From the NCBI GenBank assembly GCA_032718475.1, contig JAUCBJ010003385.1, positions 1 to 64,000 of the forward strand: DNA of 64,000 bases, in the 5' to 3' direction. Within the stretch, counting starts at the first letter, position 1, and every line of letters starts with the position of its first letter. A model generated the notes under the pieces. The model was not told where the DNA came from. It worked only from the letters and a program-made list of their open reading frames with translations, and ran no database searches. Source of the DNA: Nemertoderma westbladi (Eukaryota > Animalia > Xenacoelomorpha). A program made the position numbers and the translations under genes. Shown here in pieces: positions 28,994 through 64,000 of the stretch.

Positions 28994-29043
28994 CTGAAAC
29001 AAATTACATTAAAAATACATTTTATTAAAATGCAACCTGTAAT

Positions 29044-32604: not shown

Positions 32605-32663
32605 CTGGAAAATAAAATTATAATTATGAAAACGAAATGGACCTACTGTACTATAGTAACTAC

Positions 32664-35600
32664 TGGCAACTGTAATTAGGTCCCAACGTTCTAGAACAAC
32701 TAACTTTCATGGCAACTGTAATTAGGTACCAACGTTCTAGAACAACTAACCTTCATGGCAACTGTAATTAGGTACCAACGTTCTAGAACAACTAACCTTC
32801 ATGGCAACTGTAATTAGGTACCAACGTTCTAGAACAACTAACCTTCATGGCAACTGTAATTAGGTACCAACGTTCTAGAACAACTAACCTTCATGGCAAC
32901 TGTAATTAGGTACCAACGTTCTAGAACAACTAACCTTCATGGCAACTGTAATTAGGTACCAACGTTCTAGAACAACTAACCTTCATGGCAACTGTAATTA
33001 GGTACCAACGTTCTAGAACAACTAACCTTCATGGCAACTGTAATTAGGTACCAACGTTCTAGAACAACTAACCTTCATGGCAACTGTAATTAGGTGCCAA
33101 CGTTCTAGAACTACTAGCCTTCATGGCAACTGTAATTAGGTACCAACGTTCTAGAACAACTAACCTTCATGGCAACTGTAATTAGGTACCAACGTTCTAG
33201 AACAACTAACCTTCATGGCAACTGTAATTAGGTACCAACGTTGTAGAACAACTAACCTTCATGGCAACTGTAATTAGGTACCAACGTTCTAGAACAACTA
33301 ACCTTCATGGCAACTGTAATTAGGTACCAACGTTCTAGAAGAACTAACCTTCATGGCAACTGTAATTAGGTACCAACGTTCTAGAAGAACTAACCTTCAT
33401 GGCAACTGTAATTAGGTACCAACGTTCAAGAACAACTAACCTTCATGTCAAATGTAATTAGGTACCAACGTTCTAGAACAACTAACCTTCATGGCAACTG
33501 TAATTAGGTACCAACGTTGTAGAACAACTAACCTTCATGGCAACTGTAATTAGGTACCAACGTTCTAGAAGAACTAACCTTCATGGCAACTGTAATTAGG
33601 TACCAACGTTGTAGAACAACTAACCTTCATGGCAACTGTAATTAGGTACCAACGTTCTAGAACAACTAACCTTCATGGCAACTGTAATTAGGTACCAACG
33701 TTCTAGAAGAACTAACCTTCATGGCAACTGTAATTAGGTACCAACGTTGTAGAACAACTAACCTTCATGGCAACTGTAATTAGGTACCAACGTTCTAGAA
33801 CAACTAACCTTCATGGCAACTGTAATTAGGTACCAACGTTCTAGAAGAACTAACCTTCATGGCAACTGTAATTAGGTACCAACGTTCTAGAACAACTAAC
33901 CTTCATGGCAACTGTAATTAGGTACCAACGTTCTAGAACAACTAACTTTCATGGCAACTGTAATTAGGTACCAACGTTCTAGAACAACTAACCTTCATGG
34001 CAACTGTAATTAGGTACCAACGTTGTAGAACAACTAACCTTCATGGCAACTGTAATTAGGTACCAACGTTCTAGAACAACTAACCTTCATGGCAACTGTA
34101 ATTAGGTACCAACGTTCTAGAAGAACTAACCTTCATGGCAACTGTAATTAGGTACCAACGTTGTAGAACAACTAACCTTCATGGCAACTGTAATTAGGTA
34201 CCAACGTTCAAGAACAACTAACCTTCATGTCAAATGTAATTAGGTACCAACGTTCTAGAACAACTAACTTTCATGGCAACTGTAATTAGGTACCAACGTT
34301 CTAGAACAACTAACCTTCATGGCAACTGTAATTAGGTACCAACGTTGTAGAACAACTAACCTTCATGGCAACTGTAATTAGGTACCAACGTTCTAGAACA
34401 ACTAACTTTCATGGCAACTGTAATTAGGTACCAACGTTCTAGAACAACTAACCTTCATGGCAACTGTAATTAGGTACCAACGTTGTAGAACAACTAACCT
34501 TCATGGCAACTGTAATTAGGTACCAACGTTCTAGAAGAACTAACCTTCATGGCAACTGTAATTAGGTACCAACGTTCAAGAACAACTAACCTTCATGTCA
34601 AATGTAATTAGGTACCAACGTTCTAGAACAACTAACTTTCATGGCAACTGTAATTAGGTACCAACGTTCTAGAACAACTAACCTTCATGGCAACTGTAAT
34701 TAGGTACCAACGTTCTAGAACAACTAACCTTCATGGCAACTGTAATTAGGTACCAACGTTCTAGAACAACTAACCTTCATGGCAACTGTAATTAGGTACC
34801 AACGTTCTAGAACAACTAACCTTCATGGCAACTGTAATTAGGTGCCAACGTTCTAGAACTACTAGCCTTCATGGCAACTGTAATTAGGTACCAACGTTCT
34901 AGAACAACTAACCTTCATGGCAACTGTAATTAGGTACCAACGTTCTAGAACAACTAACCTTCATGGCAACTGTAATTAGGTACCAACGTTGTAGAACAAC
35001 TAACCTTCATGGCAACTGTAATTAGGTACCAACGTTCTAGAACAACTAATCTTCATGGCAACTGTAATTAGGTACCAACGTTCTAGAAGAACTAACCTTC
35101 ATGGCAACTGTAATTAGGTACCAACGTTCAAGAACAACTAACCTTCATGTCAAATGTAATTAGGTACCAACGTTCTAGAACAACTAACCTTCATGGCAAC
35201 TGTAATTAGGTACCAACGTTGTAGAACAACTAACCTTCATGGCAACTGTAATTAGGTACCAACGTTCTAGAACAACTAGCCTTCATGGCAACTGTAATTA
35301 GGTACCAACGTTCTAGAACAACTAGCCTTCATGGCAACTGTAATTAGGTACCAACGTTCTAGAAGAACTAACCTTCATGGCAACTGTAATTAGGTACCAA
35401 CGTTCTAGAACAACTAACCTTCATGGCAACTGTAATTAGGTACCAACGTTCTAGAACAACTAACCTTCATGGCAACTGTAATTAGGTACCAACGTTCAAG
35501 AACAACTAACCTTCATGGCAACTGTAATTAGGTACCAACGTTCTAGAACAACTAACCTTCATGGCAACTGTAATTAGGTACCAACGTTCTAGAACAACTA

Positions 35601-38600
35601 ACCTTCATGGCAACTGTAATTAGGTACCAACGTTGTAGAACAACTAACCTTCATGGCAACTGTAATTAGGTACCAACGTTCTAGAACAACTAACCTTCAT
35701 GGCAACTGTAATTAGGTACCAACGTTCTAGAACAACTAACCTTCATGGCAACTGTAATTAGGTACCAACGTTCTAGAACAACTAACCTTCATGGCAACTG
35801 TAATTAGGTACCAACGTTGTAGAACAACTAACCTTCATGGCAACTGTAATTAGGTACCAACGTTCTAGAACAACTAACCTTCATGGCAACTGTAATTAGG
35901 TACCAACGTTGTAGAACAACTAACCTTCATGGCAACTGTAATTAGGTACCAACGTTCTAGAACAACTAACCTTCATGTCAAATGTAATTAGGTACCAACG
36001 TTCTATAACAACTAACCTTCATGGCAACTGTAATTAGGTACCAACGTTCTAGAAGAACTAACCTTCATGTCAAATGTAATTAGGTACCAACGTTCAAGAA
36101 CAACTAACCTTCATGGCAACTGTAATTAGGTACCAACGTTCTAGAACAACTAACCTTCATGTCAAATGTAATTAGGTACCAACGTTCAAGAACAACTAAC
36201 CTTCATGGCAACTGTAATTAGGTACCAACGTTCTAGAACAACTAACCTTCATGTCAAATGTAATTAGGTACCAACGTTCTAGAACAACTAACCTTCATGG
36301 CAACTGTAATTAGGTACCAACGTTCTAGAACAACTAACCTTCATGGCAACTGTAATTAGGTACCAACGTTCTAGAACAACTAACCTTCATGTCAAATGTA
36401 ATTAGGTACCAACGTTCTAGAACAACTAACCTTCATGGCAACTGTAATTAGGTACCAACGTTCTATAACAACTAACCTTCATGGCAACTGTAATTAGGTA
36501 CCAACGTTCAAGAACAACTAACCTTCATGGCAACTGTAATTAGGTACCAACGTTCTAGAACAACTAACCTTCATGGCAACTGTAATTAGGTACCAACGTT
36601 CTAGAACAACTAACCTTCATGTCAAATGTAATTAGGTACCAACGTTCTAGAACAACTAACCTTCATGGCAACTGTAATTAGGTACCAACGTTCTAGAACA
36701 ACTAACCTTCATGTCAAATGTAATTAGGTACCAACGTTCTAGAACAACTAACCTTCATGGCAACTGTAATTAGGTACCAACGTTCTAGAACAACTAACCT
36801 TCATGTCAAATGTAATTAGGTACCAACGTTCTAGAACAACTAACCTTCATGGCAACTGTAATTAGGTACCAACGTTCTAGAACAACTAACCTTCATGGCA
36901 ACTGTAATTAGGTACCAACGTTCTAGAACAACTAACCTTCATGTCAAATGTAATTAGGTACCAACGTTCTAGAACAACTAACCTTCATGGCAACTGTAAT
37001 TAGGTACCAACGTTGTAGAACAACTAACCTTCATGGCAACTGTAATTAGGTACCAACGTTCTATAACAACTAACCTTCATGGCAACTGTAATTAGGTACC
37101 AACGTTCTAGAAGAACTAACCTTCATGTCAAATGTAATTAGGTACCAACGTTCAAGAACAACTAACCTTCATGGCAACTGTAATTAGGTACCAACGTTCT
37201 AGAACAACTAACCTTCATGTCAAATGTAATTAGGTACCAACGTTCAAGAACAACTAACCTTCATGGCAACTGTAATTAGGTACCAACGTTCTAGAACAAC
37301 TAACCTTCATGTCAAATGTAATTAGGTACCAACGTTCTATAACAACTAACCTTCATGGCAACTGTAATTAGGTACCAACGTTCAAGAACAACTAACCTTC
37401 ATGTCAAATGTAATTAGGTACCAACGTTCTATAACAACTAACCTTCATGTCAAATGTAATTAGGTACCAACGTTCTATAACAACTAACCTTCATGGCAAC
37501 TGTAATTAGGTACCAACGTTCTAGAACAACTAACCTTCATGGCAACTGTAATTAGGTACCAACGTTCAAGAACAACTAACCTTCATGGCAACTGTAATTA
37601 GGTACCAACGTTGTAGAACAACTAACCTTCATGGCAACTGTAATTAGGTACCAACGTTCTAGAACAACTAACCTTCATGGCAACTGTAATTAGGTACCAA
37701 CGTTCTAGAACAACTAACCTTCATGGCAACTGTAATTAGGTACCAACGTTCAAGAACAACTAACCTTCATGGCAACTGTAATTAGGTACCAACGTTCTAG
37801 AACAACTAACCTTCATGGCAACTGTAATTAGGTACCAACGTTCTAGAAGAACTAACCTTCATGTCAAATGTAATTAGGTACCAACGTTCAAGAACAACTA
37901 ACCTTCATGGCAACTGTAATTAGCTACCAACGTTCTAGAACAACTAACCTTCATGGCAACTGTAATTAGGTACCAACGTTCAAGAACAACTAACCTTCAT
38001 GGCAACTGTAATTAGGTACCAACGTTCTAGAACAACTAACCTTCATGGCAACTGTAATTAGGTACCAACGTTCTAGAACAACTAACCTTCATGTCAAATG
38101 TAATTAGGTACCAACGTTCTATAACAACTAACCTTCATGGCAACTGTAATTAGGTACCAACGTTCAAGAACAACTAACCTTCATGGCAACTGTAATTAGG
38201 TACCAACGTTCAAAAACAACTAACCTTCATGGCAACTGTAATTAGGTACCAACGTTCAAGAACAACTAACCTTCATGTCAAATGTAATTAGGTACCAACG
38301 TTCTATAACAACTAACCTTCATGGCAACTGTAATTAGGTACCAACGTTCTAGAACAACTAACCTTCATGTCAAATGTAATTAGGTACCAACGTTCTATAA
38401 CAACTAACCTTCATGGCAACTGTAATTAGGTACCAACGTTCAAGAACAACTAACCTTCATGTCAAATGTAATTAGGTACCAACGTTCTATAACAACTAAC
38501 CTTCATGGCAACTGTAATTAGGTACCAACGTTCTAGAACAACTAACCTTCATGTCAAATGTAATTAGGTACCAACGTTCTATAACAACTAACCTTCATGG

Positions 38601-41600
38601 CAACTGTAATTAGGTACCAACGTTCTAGAACAACTAACCTTCATGTCAAATGTAATTAGGTACCAACGTTCTATAACAACTAACCTTCATGGCAACTGTA
38701 ATTAGGTACCAACGTTCTAGAACAACTAACCTTCATGTCAAATGTAATTAGGTACCAACGTTCTATAACAACTAACCTTCATGGCAACTGTAATTAGGTA
38801 CCAACGTTCAAGAACAACTAACCTTCATGGCAACTGTAATTAGGTACCAACGTTCAAGAACAACTAACCTTCATGGCAACTGTAATTAGGTACCAACGTT
38901 CAAGAACAACTAACCTTCATGGCAACTGTAATTAGGTACCAACGTTCTAGAACAACTAACCTTCATGGCAACTGTAATTAGGTACCAACGTTCAAGAACA
39001 ACTAACCTTCATGTCAAATGTAATTAGGTACCAACGTTCAAGAACAACTAACCTTCATGGCAACTGTAATTAGGTACCAACGTTCAAGAACAACTAACCT
39101 TCATGGCAACTGTAATTAGGTACCAACGTTCAAGAACAACTAACCTTCATGGCAACTGTAATTAGGTACCAACGTTCAAGAACAACTAACCTTCATGGCA
39201 ACTGTAATTAGGTACCAACGTTCTAGAACAACTAACCTTCATGGCAACTGTAATTAGGTACCAACGTTCTAGAACAACTAACCTTCATGGCAACTGTAAT
39301 TAGGTACCAACGTTCTAGAACAACTAACCTTCATGGCAACTGTAATTAGGTACCAACGTTCAAGAACAACTAACCTTCATGGCAACTGTAATTAGGTACC
39401 AACGTTCTAGAACAACTAACCTTCATGGCAACTGTAATTAGGTACCAACGTTCTAGAACAACTAACCTTCATGTCAAATGTAATTAGGTACCAACGTTCT
39501 ATAACAACTAACCTTCATGGCAACTGTAATTAGGTACCAACGTTCAAGAACAACTAACCTTCATGGCAACTGTAATTAGGTACCAACGTTCAAGAACAAC
39601 TAACCTTCATGGCAACTGTAATTAGGTACCAACGTTCAAGAACAACTAACCTTCATGTCAAATGTAATTAGGTACCAACGTTCTATAACAACTAACCTTC
39701 ATGGCAACTGTAATTAGGTACCAACGTTCAAGAACAACTAACCTTCATGGCAACTGTAATTAGGTACCAACGTTCTAGAACAACTAACCTTCATGGCAAC
39801 TGTAATTAGGTACCAACGTTCTAGAACAACTAACCTTCATGGCAACTGTAATTAGGTACCAACGTTCTAGAACAACTAACCTTCATGGCAACTGTAATTA
39901 GGTACCAACGTTGTAGAACAACTAACCTTCATGGCAACTGTAATTAGGTACCAACGTTCTAGAACAACTAACCTTCATGGCAACTGTAATTAGGTACCAA
40001 CGTTCTAGAACAACTAACCTTCATGGCAACTGTAATTAGGTACCAACGTTCAAGAACAACTAACCTTCATGGCAACTGTAATTAGGTACCAACGTTCAAG
40101 AACAACTAACCTTCATGTCAAATGTAATTAGGTACCAACGTTCTAGAACAACTAACCTTCATGGCAACTGTAATTAGGTACCAACGTTCTAGAACAACTA
40201 ACCTTCATGGCAACTGTAATTAGGTACCAACGTTCTAGAAGAACTAACCTTCATGGCAACTGTAATTAGGTACCAACGTTCTACAACAACTAACCTTCAT
40301 GGCAACTGTAATTAGGTACCAACGTTCTATAACAACTAACCTTCATGGCAACTGTAATTAGGTACCAACGTTCTAGAACAACTAACCTTCATGGCAACTG
40401 TAATTAGGTACCAACGTTCTAGAACAACTAACCTTCATGGCAACTGTAATTAGGTACCAACGTTGTAGAACAACTAACCTTCATGGCAACTGTAATTAGG
40501 TACCAACGTTCTAGAACAACTAACCTTCATGGCAACTGTAATTAGGTACCAACGTTGTAGAACAACTAACCTTCATGGCAACTGTAATTAGGTACCAACG
40601 TTGTAGAACAACTAACCTTCATGGCAACTGTAATTAGGTACCAACGTTCTAGAACAACTAACCTTCATGGCAACTGTAATTAGGTACCAACGTTCAAGAA
40701 CAACTAACCTTCATGGCAACTGTAATTAGGTACCAACGTTCTAGAACAACTAACCTTCATGGCAACTGTAATTAGGTACCAACGTTCTAGAACAACTAAC
40801 CTTCATGGCAACTGTAATTAGGTACCAACGTTGTAGAACAACTAACCTTCATGGCAACTGTAATTAGGTACCAACGTTCTAGAACAACTAACCTTCATGT
40901 CAAATGTAATTAGGTACCAACGTTCTATAACAACTAACCTTCATGGCAACTGTAATTAGGTACCAACGTTCAAGAACAACTAACCTTCATGGCAACTGTA
41001 ATTAGGTACCAACGTTCTAGAACAACTAACCTTCATGTCAAATGTAATTAGGTACCAACGTTCAAGAACAACTAACCTTCATGGCAACTGTAATTAGGTA
41101 CCAACGTTCTAGAACAACTAACCTTCATGGCAACTGTAATTAGGTACCAACGTTGTAGAACAACTAACCTTCATGTCAAATGTAATTAGGTACCAACGTT
41201 CAAGAACAACTAACCTTCATGGCAACTGTAATTAGGTACCAACGTTCTAGAACAACTAACCTTCATGTCAACTGTAATTAGGTACCAACGTTCTAGAACA
41301 ACTAACCTTCATGGCAACTGTAATTAGGTACCAACGTTCTAGAACAACTAACCTTCATGGCAACTGTAATTAGGTACCAACGTTCTAGAACAACTAACCT
41401 TCATGGCAACTGTAATTAGGTACCAACGTTCTAGAACAACTAACCTTCATGGCAACTGTAATTAGGTACCAACGTTCTAGAACAACTAACCTTCATGGCA
41501 ACTGTAATTAGGTACCAACGTTCTAGAACAACTAACCTTCATGGCAACTGTAATTAGGTACCAACGTTCTAGAACAACTAACCTTCATGGCAACTGTAAT

Positions 41601-44600
41601 TAGGTACCAACGTTCAAGAACAACTAACCTTCATGTCAAATGTAATTAGGTACCAACGTTCTATAACAACTAACCTTCATGGCAACTGTAATTAGGTACC
41701 AACGTTCTAGAACAACTAACCTTCATGTCAAATGTAATTAGGTACCAACGTTCTATAACAACTAACCTTCATGGCAACTGTAATTAGGTACCAACGTTCT
41801 AGAACAACTAACCTTCATGTCAAATGTAATTAGGTACCAACGTTCTATAACAACTAACCTTCATGGCAACTGTAATTAGGTACCAACGTTCTAGAACAAC
41901 TAACCTTCATGTCAAATGTAATTAGGTACCAACGTTCTATAACAACTAACCTTCATGGCAACTGTAATTAGGTACCAACGTTCAAGAACAACTAACCTTC
42001 ATGGCAACTGTAATTAGGTACCAACGTTCAAGAACAACTAACCTTCATGGCAACTGTAATTAGGTACCAACGTTCAAGAACAACTAACCTTCATGGCAAC
42101 TGTAATTAGGTACCAACGTTCTAGAACAACTAACCTTCATGGCAACTGTAATTAGGTACCAACGTTCAAGAACAACTAACCTTCATGTCAAATGTAATTA
42201 GGTACCAACGTTCAAGAACAACTAACCTTCATGGCAACTGTAATTAGGTACCAACGTTCAAGAACAACTAACCTTCATGGCAACTGTAATTAGGTACCAA
42301 CGTTCAAGAACAACTAACCTTCATGGCAACTGTAATTAGGTACCAACGTTCAAGAACAACTAACCTTCATGGCAACTGTAATTAGGTACCAACGTTCTAG
42401 AACAACTAACCTTCATGGCAACTGTAATTAGGTACCAACGTTCTAGAACAACTAACCTTCATGGCAACTGTAATTAGGTACCAACGTTCTAGAACAACTA
42501 ACCTTCATGGCAACTGTAATTAGGTACCAACGTTCTAGAACAACTAACCTTCATGGCAACTGTAATTAGGTACCAACGTTCTAGAACAACTAACCTTCAT
42601 GGCAACTGTAATTAGGTACCAACGTTCTAGAACAACTAACCTTCATGTCAAATGTAATTAGGTACCAACGTTCTATAACAACTAACCTTCATGGCAACTG
42701 TAATTAGGTACCAACGTTCAAGAACAACTAACCTTCATGGCAACTGTAATTAGGTACCAACGTTCAAGAACAACTAACCTTCATGGCAACTGTAATTAGG
42801 TACCAACGTTCAAGAACAACTAACCTTCATGTCAAATGTAATTAGGTACCAACGTTCTATAACAACTAACCTTCATGGCAACTGTAATTAGGTACCAACG
42901 TTCAAGAACAACTAACCTTCATGGCAACTGTAATTAGGTACCAACGTTCTAGAACAACTAACCTTCATGGCAACTGTAATTAGGTACCAACGTTCTAGAA
43001 CAACTAACCTTCATGGCAACTGTAATTAGGTACCAACGTTCTAGAACAACTAACCTTCATGGCAACTGTAATTAGGTACCAACGTTGTAGAACAACTAAC
43101 CTTCATGGCAACTGTAATTAGGTACCAACGTTCTAGAACAACTAACCTTCATGGCAACTGTAATTAGGTACCAACGTTCTAGAACAACTAACCTTCATGG
43201 CAACTGTAATTAGGTACCAACGTTCAAGAACAACTAACCTTCATGGCAACTGTAATTAGGTACCAACGTTCTAGAACAACTAACCTTCATGTCAAATGTA
43301 ATTAGGTACCAACGTTCTAGAACAACTAACCTTCATGGCAACTGTAATTAGGTACCAACGTTCTAGAACAACTAACCTTCATGGCAACTGTAATTAGGTA
43401 CCAACGTTCTAGAAGAACTAACCTTCATGGCAACTGTAATTAGGTACCAACGTTCTACAACAACTAACCTTCATGGCAACTGTAATTAGGTACCAACGTT
43501 CTATAACAACTAACCTTCATGGCAACTGTAATTAGGTACCAACGTTCTAGAACAACTAACCTTCATGGCAACTGTAATTAGGTACCAACGTTCTAGAACA
43601 ACTAACCTTCATGGCAACTGTAATTAGGTACCAACGTTGTAGAACAACTAACCTTCATGGCAACTGTAATTAGGTACCAACGTTCTAGAACAACTAACCT
43701 TCATGGCAACTGTAATTAGGTACCAACGTTGTAGAACAACTAACCTTCATGGCAACTGTAATTAGGTACCAACGTTGTAGAACAACTAACCTTCATGGCA
43801 ACTGTAATTAGGTACCAACGTTCTAGAACAACTAACCTTCATGGCAACTGTAATTAGGTACCAACGTTCAAGAACAACTAACCTTCATGGCAACTGTAAT
43901 TAGGTACCAACGTTCTAGAACAACTAACCTTCATGGCAACTGTAATTAGGTACCAACGTTCTAGAACAACTAACCTTCATGGCAACTGTAATTAGGTACC
44001 AACGTTGTAGAACAACTAACCTTCATGGCAACTGTAATTAGGTACCAACGTTCTAGAACAACTAACCTTCATGTCAAATGTAATTAGGTACCAACGTTCT
44101 ATAACAACTAACCTTCATGGCAACTGTAATTAGGTACCAACGTTCAAGAACAACTAACCTTCATGGCAACTGTAATTAGGTACCAACGTTCTAGAACAAC
44201 TAACCTTCATGTCAAATGTAATTAGGTACCAACGTTCAAGAACAACTAACCTTCATGGCAACTGTAATTAGGTACCAACGTTCTAGAACAACTAACCTTC
44301 ATGGCAACTGTAATTAGGTACCAACGTTGTAGAACAACTAACCTTCATGTCAAATGTAATTAGGTACCAACGTTCAAGAACAACTAACCTTCATGGCAAC
44401 TGTAATTAGGTACCAACGTTCTAGAACAACTAACCTTCATGTCAACTGTAATTAGGTACCAACGTTCTAGAACAACTAACCTTCATGGCAACTGTAATTA
44501 GGTACCAACGTTCTAGAACAACTAACCTTCATGTCAACTGTAATTAGGTACCAACGTTCTAGAACAACTAACCTTCATGGCAACTGTAATTAGGTACCAA

Positions 44601-47600: not shown

Positions 47601-50600
47601 CAACTAACCGTCATGGCAACTGTAAATAGGTACCAACGTTCTAGAACAACTAACCGACATGGCAACTGTAATTAGCTACCAACGTTCTAGAACAACTAAC
47701 CGTCATGGCAACAGTAATTAGGTACCAACGTTCTAGAACAACTAACCGTCATGGCAACTGTAAATAGGTACCAACGTTCTAGAACAACTAACCTTCATGG
47801 CAACTGTAATTAGCTACCAACGTTCTAGAACAACTAACCGTCATGGCAACAGTAATTAGGTACCAACGTTCTAGAACAACTAACCGTCATGGCAACTGTA
47901 ATTAGCTACCAACGTTCTAGAACAACTAACCGTCATGGCAACAGTAATTAGGTAACAACGTTCTAGAACAACTAACCGTCATGGCAACTGTAAATAGGTA
48001 CCAACGTTCTAGAACAACTAACCGACATGGCAACTGTAATTAGGTACCAACGTTCTAGAACAACTAACCGTCATGGCAACAGTAATTAGGTACCAACGTT
48101 CTAGAACAACTAACCGTCATGGCAACTGTAAATAGGTACCAACGTTCTAGAACAACTAACCGACATGGCAACTGTAATTAGGTACCAACGTTCTAGAACA
48201 ACTAACCGTCATGGCAACAGTAATTAGGTACCAACGTTCTAGAACAACTAACCTTCATGGCAACTGTAATTAGGTACCAACGTTCTAGAAGAACTAACCT
48301 TCATGGCAACTGTAATTAGCTACCAACGTTCTAGAACAACTAACCGTCATGGCAACAGTAATTAGGTACCAACGTTCTAGAACAACTAACCGTCATGGCA
48401 ACTGTAAATAGGTACCAACGTTCTAGAACAACTAACCGACATGGCAACTGTAATTAGGTACCAACGTTCTAGAACAACTAACCGTCATGGCAACAGTAAT
48501 TAGGTACCAACGTTCTAGAACAACTAACCTTCATGGCAACTGTAATTAGGTACTAACGTTCTAGAACAACTAACCTTCATGGCAACTGTAATTAAGGTCA
48601 CGAACGTTCTAGAACAACTAACCGTCATGGCAACTGTAATTAGGTACCAACGTTCTAGAACAACTAACCTTCATGGCAACTGTAATTAGGTACCAACGTT
48701 CTAGAACAACTAACCTTCATGGCAACTGTAATTAGGTACTAACGTTCTAGAACAACTAACCTTCATGGCAACTGTAATTAAGGTCACGAACGTTCTAGAA
48801 GAACTAACCTTCATGGCAACTGTAATTAGGTACCAACGTTCTAGAACAACTAACCTTCATGGCAACTGTAATTAGGTACCAACGTTCTAGAACAACTAGC
48901 CTTCATGGCAACTGTAATTAGGTACTAACGTTCTAGAACAACTAACCTTCATGGCAACTGTAATTAAGGTCACGAACGTTCTAGAAGAACTAACCTTCAT
49001 GGCAACTGTAATTAGGTACCAACGTTCAAGAACAACTAACCTTCATGGCAACTGTAATTAGGTACCAACGTTCTAGAAGAACTAACCTTCATGGCAACTG
49101 TAATTAGGTACCAACGTTCTAGAACAACTAACCTTCATGGCAACTGTAATTAGGTACCAACGTTCTAGAACAACTAACCTTCATGGCAACTGTAATTAGG
49201 TACCAACGTTCTAGAACTACTAACCTTCATGGCAACTGTAATTAGGTACCAACGTTCTAGAACAACTAACCTTCATGGCAACTGTAATTAGGTACTAACG
49301 TTCTAGAACAACTAACCTTCATGGCAACTGTAATTAGGTACCAACGTTCTAGAACAACTAACCTTCATGGCAACTGTAATTAGGTACCAACGTTCTAGAA
49401 CAACTAACCTTCATGGCAACTGTAATTAGGTACCAACGTTCTAGAACAACTAACCTTCATGGCAACTGTAATTAGGTACCAACGTTCTAGAACAACTAAC
49501 CTTCATGGCAACTGTAATTAGGTACCAACGTTCAAGAACAACTAACCTTCATGGCAACTGTAATTAGGTACCAACGTTCTAGAACAACTAACCTTCATGG
49601 CAACTGTAATTAGGTACCAACGTTCTAGAACAACTAACCTTCATGGCAACTGTAATTAGGTACCAACGTTCAAGAACAACTAACCTTCATGGCAACTGTA
49701 ATTAGGTACCAACGTTCTAGAACAACTAACCTTCATGGCAACTGTAATTAGGTACCAACGTTCTAGAACAACTAACCTTCATGGCAACTGTAATTAGGTA
49801 CCAACGTTCTAGAACAACTAACCTTCATGGCAACTGTAATTAGGTACCAACGTTCTAGAACAACTAACCTTCATGGCAACTGTAATTAGGTACCAACGTT
49901 CAAGAACAACTAACCTTCATGGCAACTGTAATTAGGTACCAACGTTCTAGAACAACTAACCTTCATGGCAACTGTAATTAGGTACCAACGTTCTAGAACA
50001 ACTAACCTTCATGGCAACTGTAATTAGGTACCAACGTTCAAGAACAACTAACCTTCATGGCAACTGTAATTAGGTACCAACGTTCTAGAACAACTAACCT
50101 TCATGGCAACTGTAATTAGGTACCAACGTTCTAGAACAACTAACCTTCATGGCAACTGTAATTAGGTACCAACGTTCTAGAACAACTAACCTTCATGGCA
50201 ACTGTAATTAGGTACCAACGTTCTAGAACAACTAACCTTCATGGCAACTGTAATTAGGTACCAACGTTCTAGAACAACTAACCTTCATGGCAACTGTAAT
50301 TAGGTACCAACGTTCTAGAACAACTAACCTTCATGGCAACTGTAATTAGGTACCAACGTTCTAGAAGAACTAACCTTCATGGCAACTGTAATTAGGTACC
50401 AACGTTCTAGAACAACTAACCTTCATGGCAACTGTAATTAGGTACCAACGTTCTAGAAGAACTAACCTTCATGGCAACTGTAATTAGGTACCAACGTTCT
50501 AGAACAACTAACCTTCATGGCAACTGTAATTAGGTACCAACGTTCTATAACAACTAACCTTCATGGCAACTGTAATTAGGTACCAACGTTCAAGAACAAC

Positions 50601-53600
50601 TAACCTTCATGGCAACTGTAATTAGGTACCAACGTTCTAGAACAACTAACCTTCATGGCAACTGTAATTAGGTACCAACGTTCTAGAACAACTAACCTTC
50701 ATGGCAACTGTAATTAGGTACCAACGTTCTAGAACAACTAACCTTCATGGCAACTGTAATTAGGTACCAACGTTCTAGAACAACTAACCTTCATGGCAAC
50801 TGTAATTAGGTACCAACGTTCTAGAACAACTAACCTTCATGGCAACTGTAATTAGGTACCAACGTTCAAGAACAACTAACCTTCATGGCAACTGTAATTA
50901 GGTACCAACGTTCTAGAACAACTAACCTTCATGGCAACTGTAATTAGGTACCAACGTTCTAGAACAACTAACCTTCATGGCAACTGTAATTAGGTACCAA
51001 CGTTCAAGAACAACTAACCTTCATGGCAACTGTAATTAGGTACCAACGTTCTAGAACAACTAACCTTCATGGCAACTGTAATTAGGTACCAACGTTCTAG
51101 AACAACTAACCTTCATGGCAACTGTAATTAGGTACCAACGTTCTAGAACAACTAACCTTCATGGCAACTGTAATTAGGTACCAACGTTCTAGAACAACTA
51201 ACCTTCATGGCAACTGTAATTAGGTACCAACGTTCTAGAACAACTAACCTTCATGGCAACTGTAATTAGGTACCAACGTTCTAGAACAACTAACCTTCAT
51301 GGCAACTGTAATTAGGTACCAACGTTCTAGAAGAACTAACCTTCATGGCAACTGTAATTAGGTACCAACGTTCTAGAACAACTAACCTTCATGGCAACTG
51401 TAATTAGGTACCAACGTTCTAGAAGAACTAACCTTCATGGCAACTGTAATTAGGTACCAACGTTCTAGAACAACTAACCTTCATGGCAACTGTAATTAGG
51501 TACCAACGTTCTATAACAACTAACCTTCATGGCAACTGTAATTAGGTACCAACGTTCAAGAACAACTAACCTTCATGGCAACTGTAATTAGGTACCAACG
51601 TTCTAGAACAACTAACCTTCATGGCAACTGTAATTAGGTACCAACGTTCTAGAAGAACTAACCTTCATGGCAACTGTAATTAGGTACCAACGTTCTAGAA
51701 CAACTAACCTTCATGGCAACTGTAATTAGGTACCAACGTTCTAGAAGAACTAACCTTCATGGCAACTGTAATTAGGTACCAACGTTCTAGAAGAACTAAC
51801 CTTCATGTCAAATGTAATTAGGTACCAACGTTCTAGAACAACTAACCTTCATGGCAACTGTAATTAGGTACCAACGTTCTAGAACAACTAACCTTCATGG
51901 CAACTGTAATTAGGTACCAACGTTCTAGAACAACTAACCTTCATGGCAACTGTAATTAGGTACCAACGTTCTATAACAACTAACCTTCATGGCAACTGTA
52001 ATTAGGTACCAACGTTCTAGAACAACTAACCTTCATGGCAACTGTAATTAGGTACCAACGTTCTAGAAGAACTAACCTTCATGGCAACTGTAATTAGGTA
52101 CCAACGTTCAAGAACAACTAACCTTCATGGCAACTGTAATTAGGTACCAACGTTCTAGAAGAACTAACCTTCATGGCAACTGTAATTAGGTACCAACGTT
52201 CTAGAAGAACTAACCTTCATGTCAAATGTAATTAGGTACCAACGTTCAAGAACAACTAACCTTCATGGCAACTGTAATTAGGTACCAACGTTCTAGAACA
52301 ACTAACCTTCATGGCAACTGTAATTAGGTACCAACGTTCTAGAAGAACTAACCTTCATGGCAACTGTAATTAGGTACCAACGTTCTAGAAGAACTAACCT
52401 TCATGGCAACTGTAATTAGGTACCAACGTTCTAGAACAACTAACCTTCATGGCAACTGTAATTAGGTACCAACGTTCTAGAACAACTAACCTTCATGGCA
52501 ACTGTAATTAGGTACCAACGTTCAAGAACAACTAACCTTCATGGCAACTGTAATTAGGTACCAACGTTCAAGAACAACTAACCTTCATGGCAACTGTAAT
52601 TAGGTACCAACGTTCTAGAACAACTAACCTTCATGGCAACTGTAATTAGGTACCAACGTTCTAGAACAACTAACCTTCATGGCAACTGTAATTAGGTACC
52701 AACGTTCTAGAACAACTAACCTTCATGGCAAATGTAATTAGGTGCCAACGTTCTAGAACAACTAACCTTCATGGCAACTGTAATTAGGTACCAACGTTCA
52801 AGAACAACTAACCTTCATGGCAACTGTAATTAGGTACCAACGTTCTAGAACAACTAACCTTCATGTCAAATGTAATTAGGTACCAACGTTCAAGAACAAC
52901 TAACCTTCATGGCAACTGTAATTAGGTACCAACGTTCAAGAACAACTAACCTTCATGGCAACTGTAATTAGGTACCAACGTTCTAGAACAACTAACCTTC
53001 ATGGCAACTGTAATTAGGTACCAACGTTCTAGAAGAACTAACCTTCATGGCAACTGTAATTAGGTACCAACGTTCTAGAAGAACTAACCTTCATGGCAAC
53101 TGTAATTAGGTACCAACGTTCAAGAACAACTAACCTTCATGGCAACTGTAATTAGGTACCAACGTTCAAGAACAACTAACCTTCATGGCAACTGTAATTA
53201 GGTACCAACGTTCTAGAACAACTAACCTTCATGGCAACTGTAATTAGGTACCAACGTTCTAGAAGAACTAACCTTCATGGCAACTGTAATTAGGTACCAA
53301 CGTTCTAGAACAACTAACCTTCATGGCAACTGTAATTAGGTACCAACGTTCAAGAACAACTAACCTTCATGGCAACTGTAATTAGGTACCAACGTTCTAG
53401 AACAACTAACCTTCATGGCAACTGTAATTAGGTACCAACGTTCAAGAACAACTAACCTTCATGGCAACTGTAATTAGGTACCAACGTTCAAGAACAACTA
53501 ACCTTCATGGCAACTGTAATTAGGTACCAACGTTCTAGAACAACTAACCTTCATGGCAACTGTAATTAGGTACCAACGTTCTAGAAGAACTAACCTTCAT

Positions 53601-56600
53601 GGCAACTGTAATTAGGTACCAACGTTCTAGAACAACTAACCTTCATGGCAACTGTAATTAGGTACCAACGTTCTAGAACAACTAACCTTCATGGCAACTG
53701 TAATTAGGTACCAACGTTCAAGAACAACTAACCTTCATGGCAACTGTAATTAGGTACCAACGTTCTAGAAGAACTAACCTTCATGGCAACTGTAATTAGG
53801 TACCAACGTTCAAGAACAACTAACCTTCATGGCAACTGTAATTAGGTACCAACGTTCAAGAACAACTAACCTTCATGGCAACTGTAATTAGGTACCAACG
53901 TTCTAGAACAACTAACCTTCATGGCAACTGTAATTAGGTACCAACGTTCAAGAACAACTAACCTTCATGGCAACTGTAATTAGGTACCAACGTTCTAGAA
54001 CAACTAACCTTCATGGCAACTGTAATTAAGGTCACGAACGTTCTAGAACAACTAACCTTCATGTCAAATGTAATTAGGTACCAACGTTCTAGAACAACTA
54101 ACCTTCATGGCAACTGTAATTAGGTACCAACGTTCTAGAACAACTAACCTTCATGGCAACTGTAATTAGGTACCAACGTTGTAGAACAACTAACCTTCAT
54201 GGCAACTGTAATTAGGTACCAACGTTCTAGAACAACTAACCTTCATGGCAACTGTAATTAGGTACCAACGTTGTAGAACAACTAACCTTCATGGCAACTG
54301 TAATTAGGTACCAACGTTCTAGAACAACTAACCTTCATGGCAACTGTAATTAGGTCCCAACGTTCTAGAACAACTAACCTTCATGGCAACTGTAATTAGG
54401 TACCAACGTTCAAGAACAACTAACCTTCATGGCAACTGTAATTAGGTACCAACGTTCAAGAACAACTAACCTTCATGGCAACTGTAATTAGGTACCAACG
54501 TTCAAGAACAACTAACCTTCATGGCAACTGTAATTAGGTCCCAACGTTCTAGAACAACTAACCTTCATGGCAACTGTAATTAGGTACCAACGTTCAAGAA
54601 CAACTAACCTTCATGGCAACTGTAATTAGGTACCAACGTTCAAGAACAACTAACCTTCATGGCAACTGTAATTAGGTACCAACGTTGTAGAACAACTAAC
54701 CTTCATGGCAACTGTAATTAGGTACCAACGTTCTATAACAACTAACCTTCATGGCAACTGTAATTAGGTACCAACGTTCTAGAACAACTAACCTTCATGG
54801 CAACTGTAATTAGGTACCAACGTTCAAGAACAACTAACCTTCATGGCAACTGTAATTAGGTACCAACGTTCAAGAACAACTAACCTTCATGGCAACTGTA
54901 ATTAGGTCCCAACGTTCTAGAACAACTAACCTTCATGGCAACTGTAATTAGGTACCAACGTTCAAGAACAACTAACCTTCATGGCAACTGTAATTAGGTA
55001 CCAACGTTGTAGAACAACTAACCTTCATGGCAACTGTAATTAGGTACCAACGTTCTAGAAGAACTAACCTTCATGGCAACTGTAATTAGGTACCAACGTT
55101 CTAGAACAACTAACCTTCATGGCAACTGTAATTAGGTACCAACGTTCTAGAACAACTAACCTTCATGGCAAATGTAATTAGGTGCCAACGTTCTAGAACA
55201 ACTAACCTTCATGGCAACTGTAATTAGGTACCAACGTTCAAGAACAACTAACCTTCATGGCAACTGTAATTAGGTACCAACGTTCTAGAACAACTAACCT
55301 TCATGTCAAATGTAATTAGGTACCAACGTTCAAGAACAACTAACCTTCATGGCAACTGTAATTAGGTACCAACGTTCAAGAACAACTAACCTTCATGGCA
55401 ACTGTAATTAGGTACCAACGTTCTAGAACAACTAACCTTCATGGCAACTGTAATTAGGTACCAACGTTCTAGAAGAACTAACCTTCATGGCAACTGTAAT
55501 TAGGTACCAACGTTCTAGAACAACTAACCTTCATGGCAACTGTAATTAGGTACCAACGTTCTAGAACAACTAACCTTCATGGCAACTGTAATTAGGTACC
55601 AACGTTCTAGAACAACTAACCTTCATGGCAACTGTAATTAGGTACCAACGTTCAAGAACAACTAACCTTCATGGCAACTGTAATTAGGTACCAACGTTCA
55701 AGAACAACTAACCTTCATGGCAACTGTAATTAGGTACCAACGTTCTAGAAGAACTAACCTTCATGGCAACTGTAATTAGGTACCAACGTTCTAGAAGAAC
55801 TAACCTTCATGGCAACTGTAATTAGGTACCAACGTTCAAGAACAACTAACCTTCATGGCAACTGTAATTAGGTACCAACGTTCAAGAACAACTAACCTTC
55901 ATGGCAACTGTAATTAGGTACCAACGTTCTAGAACAACTAACCTTCATGGCAACTGTAATTAGGTACCAACGTTCTAGAAGAACTAACCTTCATGGCAAC
56001 TGTAATTAGGTACCAACGTTCTATAACAACTAACCTTCATGGCAACTGTAATTAGGTACCAACGTTCTAGAAGAACTAACCTTCATGGCAACTGTAATTA
56101 GGTACCAACGTTCTAGAACAACTAACCTTCATGGCAACTGTAATTAGGTACCAACGTTCAAGAACAACTAACCTTCATGGCAACTGTAATTAGGTACCAA
56201 CGTTCTAGAACAACTAACCTTCATGGCAACTGTAATTAGGTACCAACGTTCTAGAACAACTAACCTTCATGGCAACTGTAATTAGGTACCAACGTTCTAG
56301 AACAACTAACCTTCATGGCAACTGTAATTAGGTACCAACGTTCTAGAAGAACTAACCTTCATGGCAACTGTAATTAGGTACCAACGTTCTAGAACAACTA
56401 ACCTTCATGGCAACTGTAATTAGGTACCAACGTTCTAGAACAACTAACCTTCATGGCAACTGTAATTAGGTACCAACGTTCTAGAACAACTAACCTTCAT
56501 GGCAACTGTAATTAGGTACCAACGTTCTAGAACAACTAACCTTCATGTCAACTGTAATTAGGTACCAACGTTCAAGAACAACTAACCTTCATGGCAACTG

Positions 56601-59600
56601 TAATTAGGTACCAACGTTCTATAACAACTAACCTTCATGGCAACTGTAATTAGGTACCAACGTTCAAGAACAACTAACCTTCATGGCAACTGTAATTAGG
56701 TACCAACGTTCTAGAACAACTAACCTTCATGGCAACTGTAATTAGGTACCAACGTTCTAGAAGAACTAACCTTCATGGCAACTGTAATTAGGTACCAACG
56801 TTCTACAACAACTACCCTTCATGGCAACTGTAATTAGGTACCAACGTTCTAGAACAACTAACCTTCATGGCAACTGTAATTAGGTACCAACGTTCTAGAA
56901 CAACTAACCTTCATGGCAACTGTAATTAGGTACCAACGTTCTAGAACAACTAACCTTCATGGCAACTGTAATTAGGTACCAACGTTCTAGAACAACTAAC
57001 CTTCATGGCAACTGTAATTAGGTACCAACGTTCTATAACAACTAACCTTCATGGCAACTGTAATTAGGTACCAACGTTCTAGAACAACTAACCTTCATGG
57101 CAACTGTAATTAGGTACCAACGTTCTAGAACAACTAACCTTCATGGCAACTGTAATTAGGTACCAACGTTCTATAACAACTAACCTTCATGGCAACTGTA
57201 ATTAGGTACCAACGTTCTAGAACAACTAACCTTCATGGCAACTGTAATTAGGTACCAACGTTCTAGAAGAACTAACCTTCATGGCAACTGTAATTAGGTA
57301 CCAACGTTCAAGAACAACTAACCTTCATGGCAACTGTAATTAGGTACCAACGTTCTAGAAGAACTAACCTTCATGGCAACTGTAATTAGGTACCAACGTT
57401 CTAGAACAACTAACCTTCATGGCAACTGTAATTAGGTACCAACGTTCTAGAACAACTAACCTTCATGGCAACTGTAATTAGGTACCAACGTTCTAGAACA
57501 ACTAACCTTCATGGCAACTGTAATTAGGTACCAACGTTCTAGAACAACTAACCTTCATGGCAACTGTAATTAGGTACCAACGTTCTAGAACAACTAACCT
57601 TCATGTCAACTGTAATTAGGTACCAACGTTCAAGAACAACTAACCTTCATGGCAACTGTAATTAGGTACCAACGTTCTAGAAGAACTAACCTTCATGGCA
57701 ACTGTAATTAGGTACCAACGTTCTAGAACAACTAACCTTCATGGCAACTGTAATTAGGTACCAACGTTCTAGAACAACTAACCTTCATGGCAACTGTAAT
57801 TAGGTACCAACGTTCTAGAACAACTAACCTTCATGGCAACTGTAATTAGGTACCAACGTTCTATAACAACTAACCTTCATGGCAACTGTAATTAGGTACC
57901 AACGTTCTAGAACAACTAACCTTCATGGCAACTGTAATTAGGTACCAACGTTCAAGAACAACTAACCTTCATGGCAACTGTAATTAGGTACCAACGTTCT
58001 AGAACAACTAACCTTCATGGCAACTGTAATTAGGTACCAACGTTCTAGAAGAACTAACCTTCATGGCAACTGTAATTAGGTACCAACGTTCTAGAACAAC
58101 TAACCTTCATGGCAACTGTAATTAGGTACCAACGTTCTAGAACAACTAACCTTCATGGCAACTGTAATTAGGTACCAACGTTCTAGAACAACTAACCTTC
58201 ATGGCAACTGTAATTAGGTACCAACGTTCTAGAACAACTAACCTTCATGGCAACTGTAATTAGGTACCAACGTTCTAGAAGAACTAACCTTCATGGCAAC
58301 TGTAATTAGGTACCAACGTTCAAGAACAACTAACCTTCATGGCAACTGTAATTAGGTACCAACGTTCTAGAACAACTAACCTTCATGGCAACTGTAATTA
58401 GGTACCAACGTTCTAGAACAACTAACCTTCATGGCAACTGTAATTAGGTACCAACGTTCTAGAACAACTAACCTTCATGGCAACTGTAATTAGGTACCAA
58501 CGTTCTAGAACAACTAACCTTCATGGCAACTGTAATTAGGTACCAACGTTCTAGAACAACTAACCTTCATGGCAACTGTAATTAGGTACCAACGTTCTAG
58601 AACAACTAACCTTCATGGCAAATGTAATTAGGTACCAACGTTCAAGAACAACTAACCTTCATGGCAACTGTAATTAGGTACCAACGTTCTAGAAGAACTA
58701 ACCTTCATGGCAACTGTAATTAGGTACCAACGTTCTAGAACAACTAACCTTCATGGCAACTGTAATTAGGTACCAACGTTCTAGAACAACTAACCTTCAT
58801 GGCAACTGTAATTAGGTACCAACGTTCTAGAACAACTAACCTTCATGGCAACTGTAATTAGGTACCAACGTTCTAGAACAACTAACCTTCATGGCAACTG
58901 TAATTAGGTACCAACGTTCTAGAACAACTAACCTTCATGGCAACTGTAATTAGGTACCAACGTTCAAGAACAACTAACCTTCATGGCAACTGTAATTAGG
59001 TACCAACGTTCTAGAACAACTAACCTTCATGGCAACTGTAATTAGGTACCAACGTTCTAGAACAACTAACCTTCATGGCAACTGTAATTAGGTACCAACG
59101 TTCTAGAACAACTAACCTTCATGGCAACTGTAATTAGGTACCAACGTTCTAGAAGAACTAACCTTCATGGCAACTGTAATTAGGTACCAACGTTCTAGAA
59201 CAACTAACCTTCATGGCAACTGTAATTAGGTACCAACGTTCTAGAACAACTAACCTTCATGGCAACTGTAATTAGGTACCAACGTTCAAGAACAACTAAC
59301 CTTCATGGCAACTGTAATTAGGTACCAACGTTCTAGAACAACTAACCTTCATGGCAACTGTAATTAGGTACCAACGTTCTAGAACAACTAACCTTCATGG
59401 CAACTGTAATTAGGTACCAACGTTCTAGAACAACTAACCTTCATGGCAACTGTAATTAGGTACCAACGTTCTAGAACAACTAACCTTCATGGCAACTGTA
59501 ATTAGGTACCAACGTTCAAGAACAACTAACCTTCATGGCAACTGTAATTAGGTACCAACGTTCTAGAACAACTAACCTTCATGGCAACTGTAATTAGGTA

Positions 59601-62600
59601 CCAACGTTCTAGAACAACTAACCTTCATGGCAACTGTAATTAGGTACCAACGTTCTAGAACAACTAACCTTCATGGCAACTGTAATTAGGTACCAACGTT
59701 CAAGAACAACTAACCTTCATGGCAACTGTAATTAGGTACCAACGTTCTAGAACAACTAACCTTCATGGCAACTGTAATTAGGTACCAACGTTCTAGAACA
59801 ACTAACCTTCATGGCAACTGTAATTAGGTACCAACGTTCTAGAACAACTAACCTTCATGGCAACTGTAATTAGGTACCAACGTTCAAGAACAACTAACCT
59901 TCATGGCAACTGTAATTAGGTACCAACGTTCTAGAACAACTAACCTTCATGGCAACTGTAATTAGGTACCAACGTTCTAGAACAACTAACCTTCATGGCA
60001 ACTGTAATTAGGTACCAACGTTCAAGAACAACTAACCTTCATGGCAACTGTAATTAGGTACCAACGTTCTAGAACAACTAACCTTCATGGCAACTGTAAT
60101 TAGGTACCAACGTTCTAGAACAACTAACCTTCATGGCAACTGTAATTAGGTACCAACGTTCTAGAACAACTAACCTTCATGGCAACTGTAATTAGGTACC
60201 AACGTTCTAGAACAACTAACCTTCATGGCAACTGTAATTAGGTACCAACGTTCAAGAACAACTAACCTTCATGGCAACTGTAATTAGGTACCAACGTTCT
60301 AGAACAACTAACCTTCATGGCAACTGTAATTAGGTACCAACGTTCTAGAACAACTAACCTTCATGGCAACTGTAATTAGGTACCAACGTTCAAGAACAAC
60401 TAACCTTCATGGCAACTGTAATTAGGTACCAACGTTCTAGAACAACTAACCTTCATGGCAACTGTAATTAGGTACCAACGTTCTAGAACAACTAACCTTC
60501 ATGGCAACTGTAATTAGGTACCAACGTTCAAGAACAACTAACCTTCATGGCAACTGTAATTAGGTACCAACGTTCTAGAACAACTAACCTTCATGGCAAC
60601 TGTAATTAGGTACCAACGTTCTAGAACAACTAACCTTCATGGCAACTGTAATTAGGTACCAACGTTCAAGAACAACTAACCTTCATGGCAACTGTAATTA
60701 GGTACCAACGTTCTAGAACAACTAACCTTCATGGCAACTGTAATTAGGTACCAACGTTCTAGAACAACTAACCTTCATGGCAACTGTAATTAGGTACCAA
60801 CGTTCTAGAAGAACTAACCTTCATGGCAACTGTAATTAGGTACCAACGTTCTAGAAGAACTAACCTTCATGGCAACTGTAATTAGGTACCAACGTTCTAG
60901 AACAACTAACCTTCATGGCAACTGTAATTAGGTACCAACGTTCTAGAACAACTAACCGTCATGGCAACTGTAATTAGGTACCAACGTTCTACAACAACTA
61001 ACCTTCATGGCAACTGTAATTAGGTACCAACGTTCTAGAAGAACTAACCTTCATGGCAACTGTAATTAGGTACCAACGTTCTACAACAACTAACCTTCAT
61101 GGCAACTGTAATTAGGTACCAACGTTCTATAACAACTAACCTTCATGGCAACTGTAATTAGGTACCAACGTTCTAGAAGAACTAACCTTCATGGCAACTG
61201 TAATTAGGTACCAACGTTCAAGAACAACTAACCTTCATGGCAACTGTAATTAGGTACCAACGTTCTAGAACAACTAACCTTCATGGCAACTGTAATTAGG
61301 TACCAACGTTCAAGAACAACTAACCTTCATGTCAAATGTAATTAGGTACCAACGTTCTAGAACAACTAACCTTCATGTCAAATGTAATTAGGTACCAACG
61401 TTCAAGAACAACTAACCTTCATGTCAAATGTAATTAGGTACCAACGTTCTAGAACAACTAACCTTCATGGCAACTGTAATTAGGTACCAACGTTCTACAA
61501 CAACTAACCTTCATGGCAACTGTAATTAGGTACCAACGTTCTATAACAACTAACCTTCATGGCAACTGTAATTAGGTACCAACGTTCTAGAAGAACTAAC
61601 CTTCATGGCAACTGTAATTAGGTACCAACGTTCAAGAACAACTAACCTTCATGGCAACTGTAATTAGGTACCAACGTTCTAGAACAACTAACCTTCATGG
61701 CAACTGTAATTAGGTACCAACGTTCAAGAACAACTAACCTTCATGTCAAATGTAATTAGGTACCAACGTTCTAGAACAACTAACCTTCATGTCAAATGTA
61801 ATTAGGTACCAACGTTCAAGAACAACTAACCTTCATGTCAAATGTAATTAGGTACCAACGTTCTAGAACAACTAACCTTCATGGCAACTGTAATTAGGTA
61901 CCAACGTTCTAGAACAACTAACCTTCATGGCAACTGTAATTAGGTACTAACGTTCAAGAACAACTAACCTTCATGGCAACTGTAATTAGGTACCAACGTT
62001 CTAGAACAACTAACCTTCATGGCAACTGTAATTAGGTGCCAACGTTCTAGAACAACTAACCTTCATGGCAACTGTAATTAGGTACCAACGTTCTAGAACA
62101 ACTAACCTTCATGGCAACTGTAATTAGGTACCAACGTTCTAGAACAACTAACCTTCATGGCAACTGTAATTAGGTACCAACGTTCTAGAACAACTAACCT
62201 TCATGGCAACTGTAATTAGGTACCAACGTTCTAGAACAACTAACCTTCATGGCAACTGTAATTAGGTACCAACGTTCTAGAACAACTAACCTTCATGGCA
62301 ACTGTAATTAGGTACCAACGTTCTATAACAACTAACCTTCATGTCAAATGTAATTAGGTACCAACGTTCAAGAACAACTAACCTTCATGGCAACTGTAAT
62401 TAGGTACCAACGTTCTAGAACAACTAACCTTCATGGCAACTGTAATTAGGTGCCAACGTTCTAGAACAACTAACCTTCATGGCAACTGTAATTAGGTACC
62501 AACGTTCTAGAACAACTAACCTTCATGGCAACTGTAATTAGGTACCAACGTTCAAGAACAACTAACCTTCATGTCAAATGTAATTAGGTACCAACGTTCA

Positions 62601-64000
62601 AGAACAACTAACCTTCATGTCAAATGTAATTAGGTACCAACGTTCTAGAACAACTAACCTTCATGTCAAATGTAATTAGGTACCAACGTTCAAGAACAAC
62701 TAACCTTCATGTCAAATGTAATTAGGTACCAACGTTCTAGAACAACTAACCTTCATGGCAACTGTAATTAGGTACCAACGTTCAAGAACAACTAACCTTC
62801 ATGGCAACTGTAATTAGGTACCAACGTTCTAGAACAACTAACCTTCATGGCAACTGTAATTAGGTGCCAACGTTCTAGAACAACTAACCTTCATGGCAAC
62901 TGTAATTAGGTACCAACGTTCTAGAACAACTAACCTTCATGGCAACTGTAATTAGGTACCAACGTTCTATAACAACTAACCTTCATGGCAACTGTAATTA
63001 GGTACCAACGTTCTAGAACAACTAACCTTCATGGCAACTGTAATTAGGTACCAACGTTCTAGAACAACTAACCTTCATGGCAACTGTAATTAGGTGCCAA
63101 CGTTCTAGAACAACTAACCTTCATGGCAACTGTAATTAGGTACCAACGTTCTAGAACAACTAACCTTCATGGCAACTGTAATTAGGTACCAACGTTCAAG
63201 AACAACTAACCTTCATGTCAAATGTAATTAGGTACCAACGTTCAAGAACAACTAACCTTCATGGCAACTGTAATTAGGTACCAACGTTCTAGAACAACTA
63301 ACCTTCATGGCAACTGTAATTAGGTGCCAACGTTCTAGAACAACTAACCTTCATGGCAACTGTAATTAGGTACCAACGTTCTAGAACAACTAACCTTCAT
63401 GGCAACTGTAATTAGGTACCAACGTTCTAGAACAACTAACCTTCATGGCAACTGTAATTAGGTACCAACGTTCTATAACAACTAACCTTCATGGCAACTG
63501 TAATTAGGTACCAACGTTCTAGAACAACTAACCTTCATGGCAACTGTAATTAGGTACCAACGTTCTAGAACAACTAACCTTCATGTCAAATGTAATTAGG
63601 TACCAACGTTCTAGAACAACTAACCTTCATGGCAACTGTAATTAGGTACCAACGTTCTAGAAGAACTAACCTTCATGGCAACTGTAATTAGGTACCAACG
63701 TTCTAGAACAACTAACCTTCATGGCAACTGTAATTAGGTACCAACGTTCTAGAACAACTAACCTTCATGGCAACTGTAATTAGGTACCAACGTTCTATAA
63801 CAACTAACCTTCATGGCAACTGTAATTAGGTACCAACGTTCTAGAACAACTAACCTTCATGGCAACTGTAATTAGGTACCAACGTTCTAGAACAACTAAC
63901 CTTCATGTCAAATGTAATTAGGTACCAACGTTCTAGAACAACTAACCTTCATGGCAACTGTAATTAGGTACCAACGTTCTATAACAACTAACCTTCATGG
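32664..64000. repeat. 46-bp satellite (CAACTAACCTTCATGGCAACTGTAATTAGGTACCAACGTTCTAGAA), ~680 copies, >31 kb, continues past the window end; probably intronic in the SH3 gene
   Basis: Seen directly. The minus strand of each unit contains ATGAAG|GTTAGT. The array starts ~60 nt from the acceptor of exon 32433-32604. Confidence 0.98.

Follow-up and report, generated by a model that had tools for sequence, protein, structure and literature searches.

A donor-spanning minisatellite of at least 680 copies very probably forms a single intron of an SH3 gene in Nemertoderma westbladi

Can an intron be made up almost wholly of copies of its own 5′ splice site and still be removed correctly? This question is raised by the window, i.e. 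the whole stretch of 64,000 nt from Nemertoderma westbladi that was analysed, in which the initial annotation had read a satellite of more than 31 kb as a giant intron of about 680 copies of a donor site. TRF reported a period of 46 with 681.1 copies and 97% matches over 32664–64000, and parsing this array into units gave 680 donor positions and 679 full units. The full units comprise 675 of 46 nt and four of 48 nt, with 40 distinct sequences, and the 46-nt units share a mean identity of 98.3% with their consensus. Both unit lengths lie within the minisatellite size range of 10–160 bp. GT is kept at 672 of the 680 donor positions and the motif AG/GTTAGT (the slash marks the splice site) at 646, and outside the array a search of about 28 kb on both strands met this motif a single time. 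The array holds at least 680 copies over at least 31.3 kb and the intron measures at least 31.4 kb (31,396 nt fall inside the window). No single molecule spanning the array was seen, and insertions or a break beyond 64000 are possible. The features of the gene are as follows.

32664–64000, minus strand: tandem array of 46-nt units, each an exon end plus a 5′ splice donor; intronic, runs past the window end (TRF and unit parse).
32605–32663, minus strand: unique intron tail of 59 nt, ending in the AG acceptor at 32605 (sequence).
32433–32604, minus strand: exon A, 172 nt, encoding a linker and the first part of an SH3 domain (profile search, X2 contig).
29044–32451, minus strand: second donor array, 31-nt unit, 110 copies, the first of which includes the final 19 nt of exon A (TRF).
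28282–28993, minus strand: coding part of exon B with the SH3 end, a low-complexity tail and the stop codon (reading frame, profile).

Exons A and B together scored 41.6 bits on a profile made from 10 fetched SH3 domains, compared with a best score of 7.2 bits among the 260 of 500 shuffles that were reported. The search for relatives of the protein found no close one, only three generic SH3 matches of 37–44% among the 50% representatives, and exon A was seen in none of 10 candidates among longer proteins. Within exon B, an in-frame 24-nt repeat at 28340–28614 (11.5 copies) encodes an 8-residue Ser/Pro-rich repeat.

Exon A opens with a split codon, as had been annotated. An in-frame start had been described as missing near the 5′ end of the exon; a single in-frame ATG exists (32500), and this ATG lies past the start of the SH3 match, and therefore an upstream exon is still needed. 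At the acceptor side, the unique tail of 59 nt agrees with the annotated distance of about 60 nt between the end of the array and the acceptor at 32605. The GT at 32704, proposed as the last donor-like site, is present but preceded by AAA, and the last full AG/GT donor is found at 32750.

The other end of the array was sought in public contigs. Four of eight listed runs contain exon B (X1–X4), representing three samples and three studies; X3 and X4 derive from one sample, X2 from a third, and X1 may be the source of the window itself. When the runs were compared with the stretch around one 48-nt unit (53975–54066), a unique loose end appeared behind 54044, at the same base in all four, and the same unique sequence adjoins a 48-nt unit variant in each of them. 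In the genomic-type runs X1 and X4, the boundary lies in contigs of 351 nt each (record 7 of X1, depth 43.4; record 20 of X4, depth 24). Both match 53999–54044 with no mismatch and lead from unique sequence through 36 exon-like nt into 10 nt of the donor. Beyond the first donor, these boundary contigs reach just 10 nt into the intron, which is less than the 31 letters of the bridging rule. As the two contigs come from different samples and have the same length of 351 nt, they likely run into another repeat or a branch about 305 nt upstream, and the previous intron possibly carries a further array. The 48-nt units of the window are listed below.

54009–54056, minus strand: 48-nt unit, of which 36 nt (54044–54009) equal the upstream exon end with 0 mismatches (contig match); likely the ancestral unit type.
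48947–48994, minus strand: 48-nt exon-like unit (unit parse).
48761–48808, minus strand: 48-nt exon-like unit (unit parse).
48575–48622, minus strand: 48-nt exon-like unit (unit parse).

The join across the array is seen in a contig of X2 (1603 nt, depth 105.5), which covers exon A and departs from the window at the acceptor (stretch compared, 32452–32755), where its loose end agrees with the 48-nt variant of the unit, the rare one. The contig consists of unique sequence, the 36 exonic nt of the unit exactly once and exon A, and it extends upstream for another 1001 nt. No X2 contig covers 32617–32660 in the intron tail, and the unit reaches a depth of 9 in this run versus 105.5 for the exon contig. 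An automatic guess labelled X2 as 'DNA?'; nevertheless, we infer that it is RNA, because a GT-AG intron is missing from the contig to the exact base, its tail is without cover, and the unit-to-exon depth of 9 against 105.5 differs from the unit-to-boundary ratios of about 250–350 in X1 and about 116 in X4. Joining the unit part with exons A and B gives one open frame out of three; the exonic part of the unit ends in GAAG and the join is in phase 1, as had been predicted, and the 30 loose letters upstream, read by hand, continue this frame without a stop. In X1, exon A has no contig, a gap that is uninformative. The first donor is therefore likely the one used in mature RNA, as observed in one contig of one study, with the reservation that contigs lose rare forms. 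Later-donor transcripts, pre-mRNA or DNA could each account for two X2 unit contigs of low depth (5 and 9).

As the same unique sequence runs into the donor in genomic-type contigs and is spliced to exon A in X2, the unit is an amplified exon end together with its donor. It comprises 34–36 exonic and 12–14 intronic nt, with AG shared at both breakpoints; the 5 exonic nt (TGAAG) assigned to it initially were too few. The unique exon sequence fused to the first unit is the arrangement that had been proposed as a check of the giant-intron reading, which it supports. The outcomes that had been named against that reading, namely a far boundary that is no exon end or a join of exon A to a spliced leader or an unrelated exon, were not seen in the contigs.

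It could be argued that the assembly has over-expanded the array artificially or that we are dealing with an independent satellite, and that the X2 join comes from an intronless gene copy. The window does contain intronless genes (Cbl and a cyclin), and X2 bears the label 'DNA?'. However, words of the consensus unit reach depths of 11,000–15,056 in X1 and 2,796 in X4, versus 43.4 and 24 for the unique boundary contigs. Furthermore, the 40 unit variants form a nested block structure, the exon continues into the donor in genomic-type runs, and X2 is without the intron tail and nearly without the array. We consider this explanation very improbable. The X1 depth ratio is lower than the count of consensus words in the window itself (300–550), which weakly suggests a real array whose full length does not exceed its visible part many times over; contig depth is not a copy number. 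We hold it to be highly probable that the array is one intron of the SH3 gene of at least 31.4 kb, with at least 680 copies of the exon end and donor, which likely grew neutrally and is likely tolerated through use of the first donor.

The next intron of the gene (32432–28994, between exons A and B) is likewise filled by an array, with a residual intron of 60 nt. Its 31-nt unit carries the AG/GTTAGT donor in 104 of the 110 copies, and both arrayed introns begin with GTTAGTT. Apart from the donor, the 46-nt and 31-nt units show no kinship, as the initial annotation had stated; depending on the orientation, 1220 or 358 of 2000 shuffles did as well as the real pair. A common origin of the two intron tails was rejected, with 3 of 5000 shuffles reaching the score when the splice signals were included and 840 of 5000 when they were held out. 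The X2 contig extends 413 nt past 32452, and no contig could cross the 31-nt array in this way. By arithmetic it ends at 28600, within the 24-nt repeat of exon B, which suggests that splicing of the second intron, too, likely starts from its first donor.

How could such an intron arise? The 59-nt tail is likely a relic of an ordinary intron of about 60 nt, judging from its letters: its first 13 nt resemble the 14 intronic nt of the unit (11 of 5000 shuffles were as good), and the residual intron of the neighbour is 60 nt long. An ordinary intron of this size would have acquired a 48-nt duplication across its exon–intron junction, the breakpoints sharing the two letters AG. A 46-nt derivative would then have swept the interior by block duplications, leaving the old type at four units of the window, at the first unit and at the last unit in X3. 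This distribution is seen at the edges, where the 48-nt type is the first unit in X1 and X4 and the last one in X3, and in the interior, where it accounts for merely 4 of 679 units; the last unit of the window is a 46-nt variant. Neutral slippage or unequal exchange would account for the growth of the array. Either process fits the exact block duplications, the largest of which comprise 27 units, compared with at most 10 in 50 shuffles. Of the 32,663 bases of the window outside the array, 11,859 also lie in arrays of at least 100 bp. This suggests that the genome makes such repeats readily and that donor-spanning ones survive as long as splicing takes the first donor.

Internal donors do not differ from the real one: the consensus is matched at 7 of 9 positions, and the identical exonic bases preceding the site number 20 in the 46-nt consensus and 36 in the 48-nt unit; therefore, donor choice is likely positional. 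The first donor would win as the one that is transcribed earliest and that is paired with the real exon, as in intron 7 of F7. Its use by the splicing machinery likely makes the array tolerable. Later-donor use in the 46-nt array gives Glu-Gly and a stop directly after Gly, so the immediate read-through stop foreseen in the initial annotation is borne out in the reading frame; in the 31-nt array, the stop follows after 13 codons. Rare transcripts of this kind would be degraded as nonsense products.

That two consecutive introns are amplified, both starting with GTTAGTT, raises a different explanation, in which amplification starts from the AG/GTTAGTT motif itself, or in which selection maintains the arrays as a regulatory device, such as a decoy sink for U1, a timing element or a means of tuning nonsense decay. 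The single occurrence of AGGTTAGT in the other sequence, about 28 kb, points in the same direction. On the other hand, n = 2, and many arrays of the window lack the motif. No selection, purifying selection included, was seen on the donor positions, which mutate like the rest of the unit (6 substitution types in the 9 donor positions versus 19 in the other 37, p = 0.61). In addition, the depth ratios of X4 and X1 are about 2–3-fold apart, which, if real, suggests loose length control. This explanation therefore appears improbable to us, even though the shared GTTAGTT start of both introns is not predicted by neutral survival alone (n = 2).

Stepwise removal, with internal copies serving as donors and acceptors in recursive or pseudo-exon chains, would yield a final mRNA identical to that in X2. 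Each unit has an acceptor-like TAG 32–34 nt before the next donor as well as a branch-like CTAAT; the acceptor-like site TTCTAG is present in 453 and CTAAT in 669 of the 679 units. A ratchet site consists of a pyrimidine tract and a YAG directly followed by GT. Here, in contrast, the YAG sits 32–34 nt before the AAG/GT donor, and the donor has no pyrimidine tract in front of it. Moreover, splice-signal positions show no extra conservation, and no forward joint that skips units was seen in the short stretches compared, although contigs show such joints poorly. We rate stepwise removal as quite improbable. A broader version, in which a 60-nt intron reached satellite size purely via its own splice junction and the array is either removed stepwise or one of many seeded by the GTTAGTT motif in this genome, amounting to splice-signal-driven gigantism, also seems unlikely to us.

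The array belongs to the donor-spanning minisatellites (F7-type VNTRs, or mirages), an already known kind of repeat, as its first monomer spans a real exon–intron boundary; in X1 and X4, unique exon sequence is followed by 36 nt of the unit and then by the donor. In intron 7 of F7, which contains a 37-bp VNTR, the most upstream site was taken in a study of 50 constructs (PMC1557585). The same report gives 5–9 donor-spanning copies for F7, 15–20 for CBS intron 13 and 25 pseudo-sites for IFI 6-16, and lists lamin B2 and PDGF beside them (PMC1557585). The likeness lies in the first monomer placed over the exon–intron border, the identical donors that follow and the use of the most upstream one. 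In contrast to the roughly 5–26 copies described for these VNTRs, at least 680 are found here, and two consecutive introns are hit.

Amphioxus 'mirage' minisatellites in Adh3, globins, TnC and PGBD5 are likewise duplications of invertebrate exon–intron borders, with units of 10–160 bp and normal splicing kept, and they are described as undergoing concerted evolution that leaves out the edge copies (PMC3087553; PMC3902484). The globin examples have 3–6 units and no satellite-scale case appears among those described there, compared with at least 680 copies in the present array. In size, the closest case is the VNTR in intron 18 of ABCA7, with a 25-bp unit and up to about 427 copies or 10,678 bp (PMC5954066; PMC13747324). 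It resembles our array in having a tandem unit at an exon end, a donor GT in every copy, hundreds of copies and a premature stop upon use of a later donor. However, the ABCA7 unit, as described, starts at the GT and is all intronic, whereas 34–36 of 48 nt are exonic here, and the present array (at least 680 copies, 31.3 kb) is about three times as long as the longest ABCA7 allele reported (10.7 kb). A literature search for satellite-scale donor arrays found nothing larger than ABCA7, which is not proof of absence.

The gigantic introns of the Drosophila Y-loop genes kl-3 and kl-5, which contain megabases of simple satellite (PMC6508621; PMC11207136), had been offered as the parallel. What they share with this locus is that tandem repeats make up more than 99% of the intron. 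However, according to these descriptions, their satellites do not come from the gene's own junction, while the 46–48-nt unit here derives from the gene's exon end. They also reach megabase scale and have a dedicated spermatocyte programme, whereas 31,396 nt of the present intron lie in the window. F7, CBS, ABCA7 and the amphioxus mirages are therefore the closer relatives.

The array is thus likely a very large yet harmless case of a known repeat type, and what is new is its scale rather than its mechanism. It indicates that a donor-spanning minisatellite can reach satellite size while the correctly spliced product is still made, and it links mirage repeats to intron gigantism. With at least 680 donors of equal strength over at least 31 kb, likely derived from an intron of about 60 nt, the gene puts the first-come rule of 5′ splice-site choice to a stress test in nature. 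Gene finders will split genes of such build in two.

Several further properties of the unit and its surroundings were recorded. A special RNA structure of the unit was rejected, since 172 of 500 shuffles were as low as the −22.2 kcal/mol of the dimer. Rfam gave 0 matches over 28000–36000, and a bacterial promoter scan, which is irrelevant to the array question, gave none. At the junction of the 46-/48-nt unit, the duplication creates a 10-bp palindrome. In the 48-nt units we take it to resemble a heat-shock element, with three alternating GAA/TTC pentamers, which are imperfect in the 46-nt units. The palindrome core TTCTAGAA occurs 7 times in 801–29000 versus 0.9 expected from base counts.

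Elsewhere in the window, a complete single-exon gene for a Cbl E3 ligase (Cbl_N, N2, N3 and RING) lies on the minus strand at 1526–3493. Lack of introns is unusual for Cbl genes. A search with this protein returned Cbl sequences from many animal phyla at 66–72% identity, and no named relative that is close. A second single-exon gene on the minus strand (13482–14495) encodes a cyclin N-terminal domain (Pfam E 1.7e-06) and is a candidate CNTD1. By eye, broken reading frames at 11990–12720 look like a decayed retrotransposon relic of RNase H/integrase. A complex satellite of about 5 kb at 17810–22767, with palindrome-rich units of 33–107 nt, is flanked by inverted similar copies at about 17440–17610 and 22690–22860 and has the appearance of an array of fold-back or MITE origin.

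The 46-nt unit was compared with other arrays of the window as well; kinship was rejected, as the best of 12 comparisons (20 of 2000 shuffles) was not significant after 12 tests. Minisatellites of 31–49 nt at 23839–24371, 25113–25609 and 26191–27596 showed no significant likeness to it where tested. At the opposite end of the window, a 25-nt array on the plus strand (1–782) has a donor-like GTGAGT in each unit and stops 66 nt before an acceptor-like TTTTCAG (848–850); it may be a third amplified donor, belonging to a plus-strand gene outside the window.
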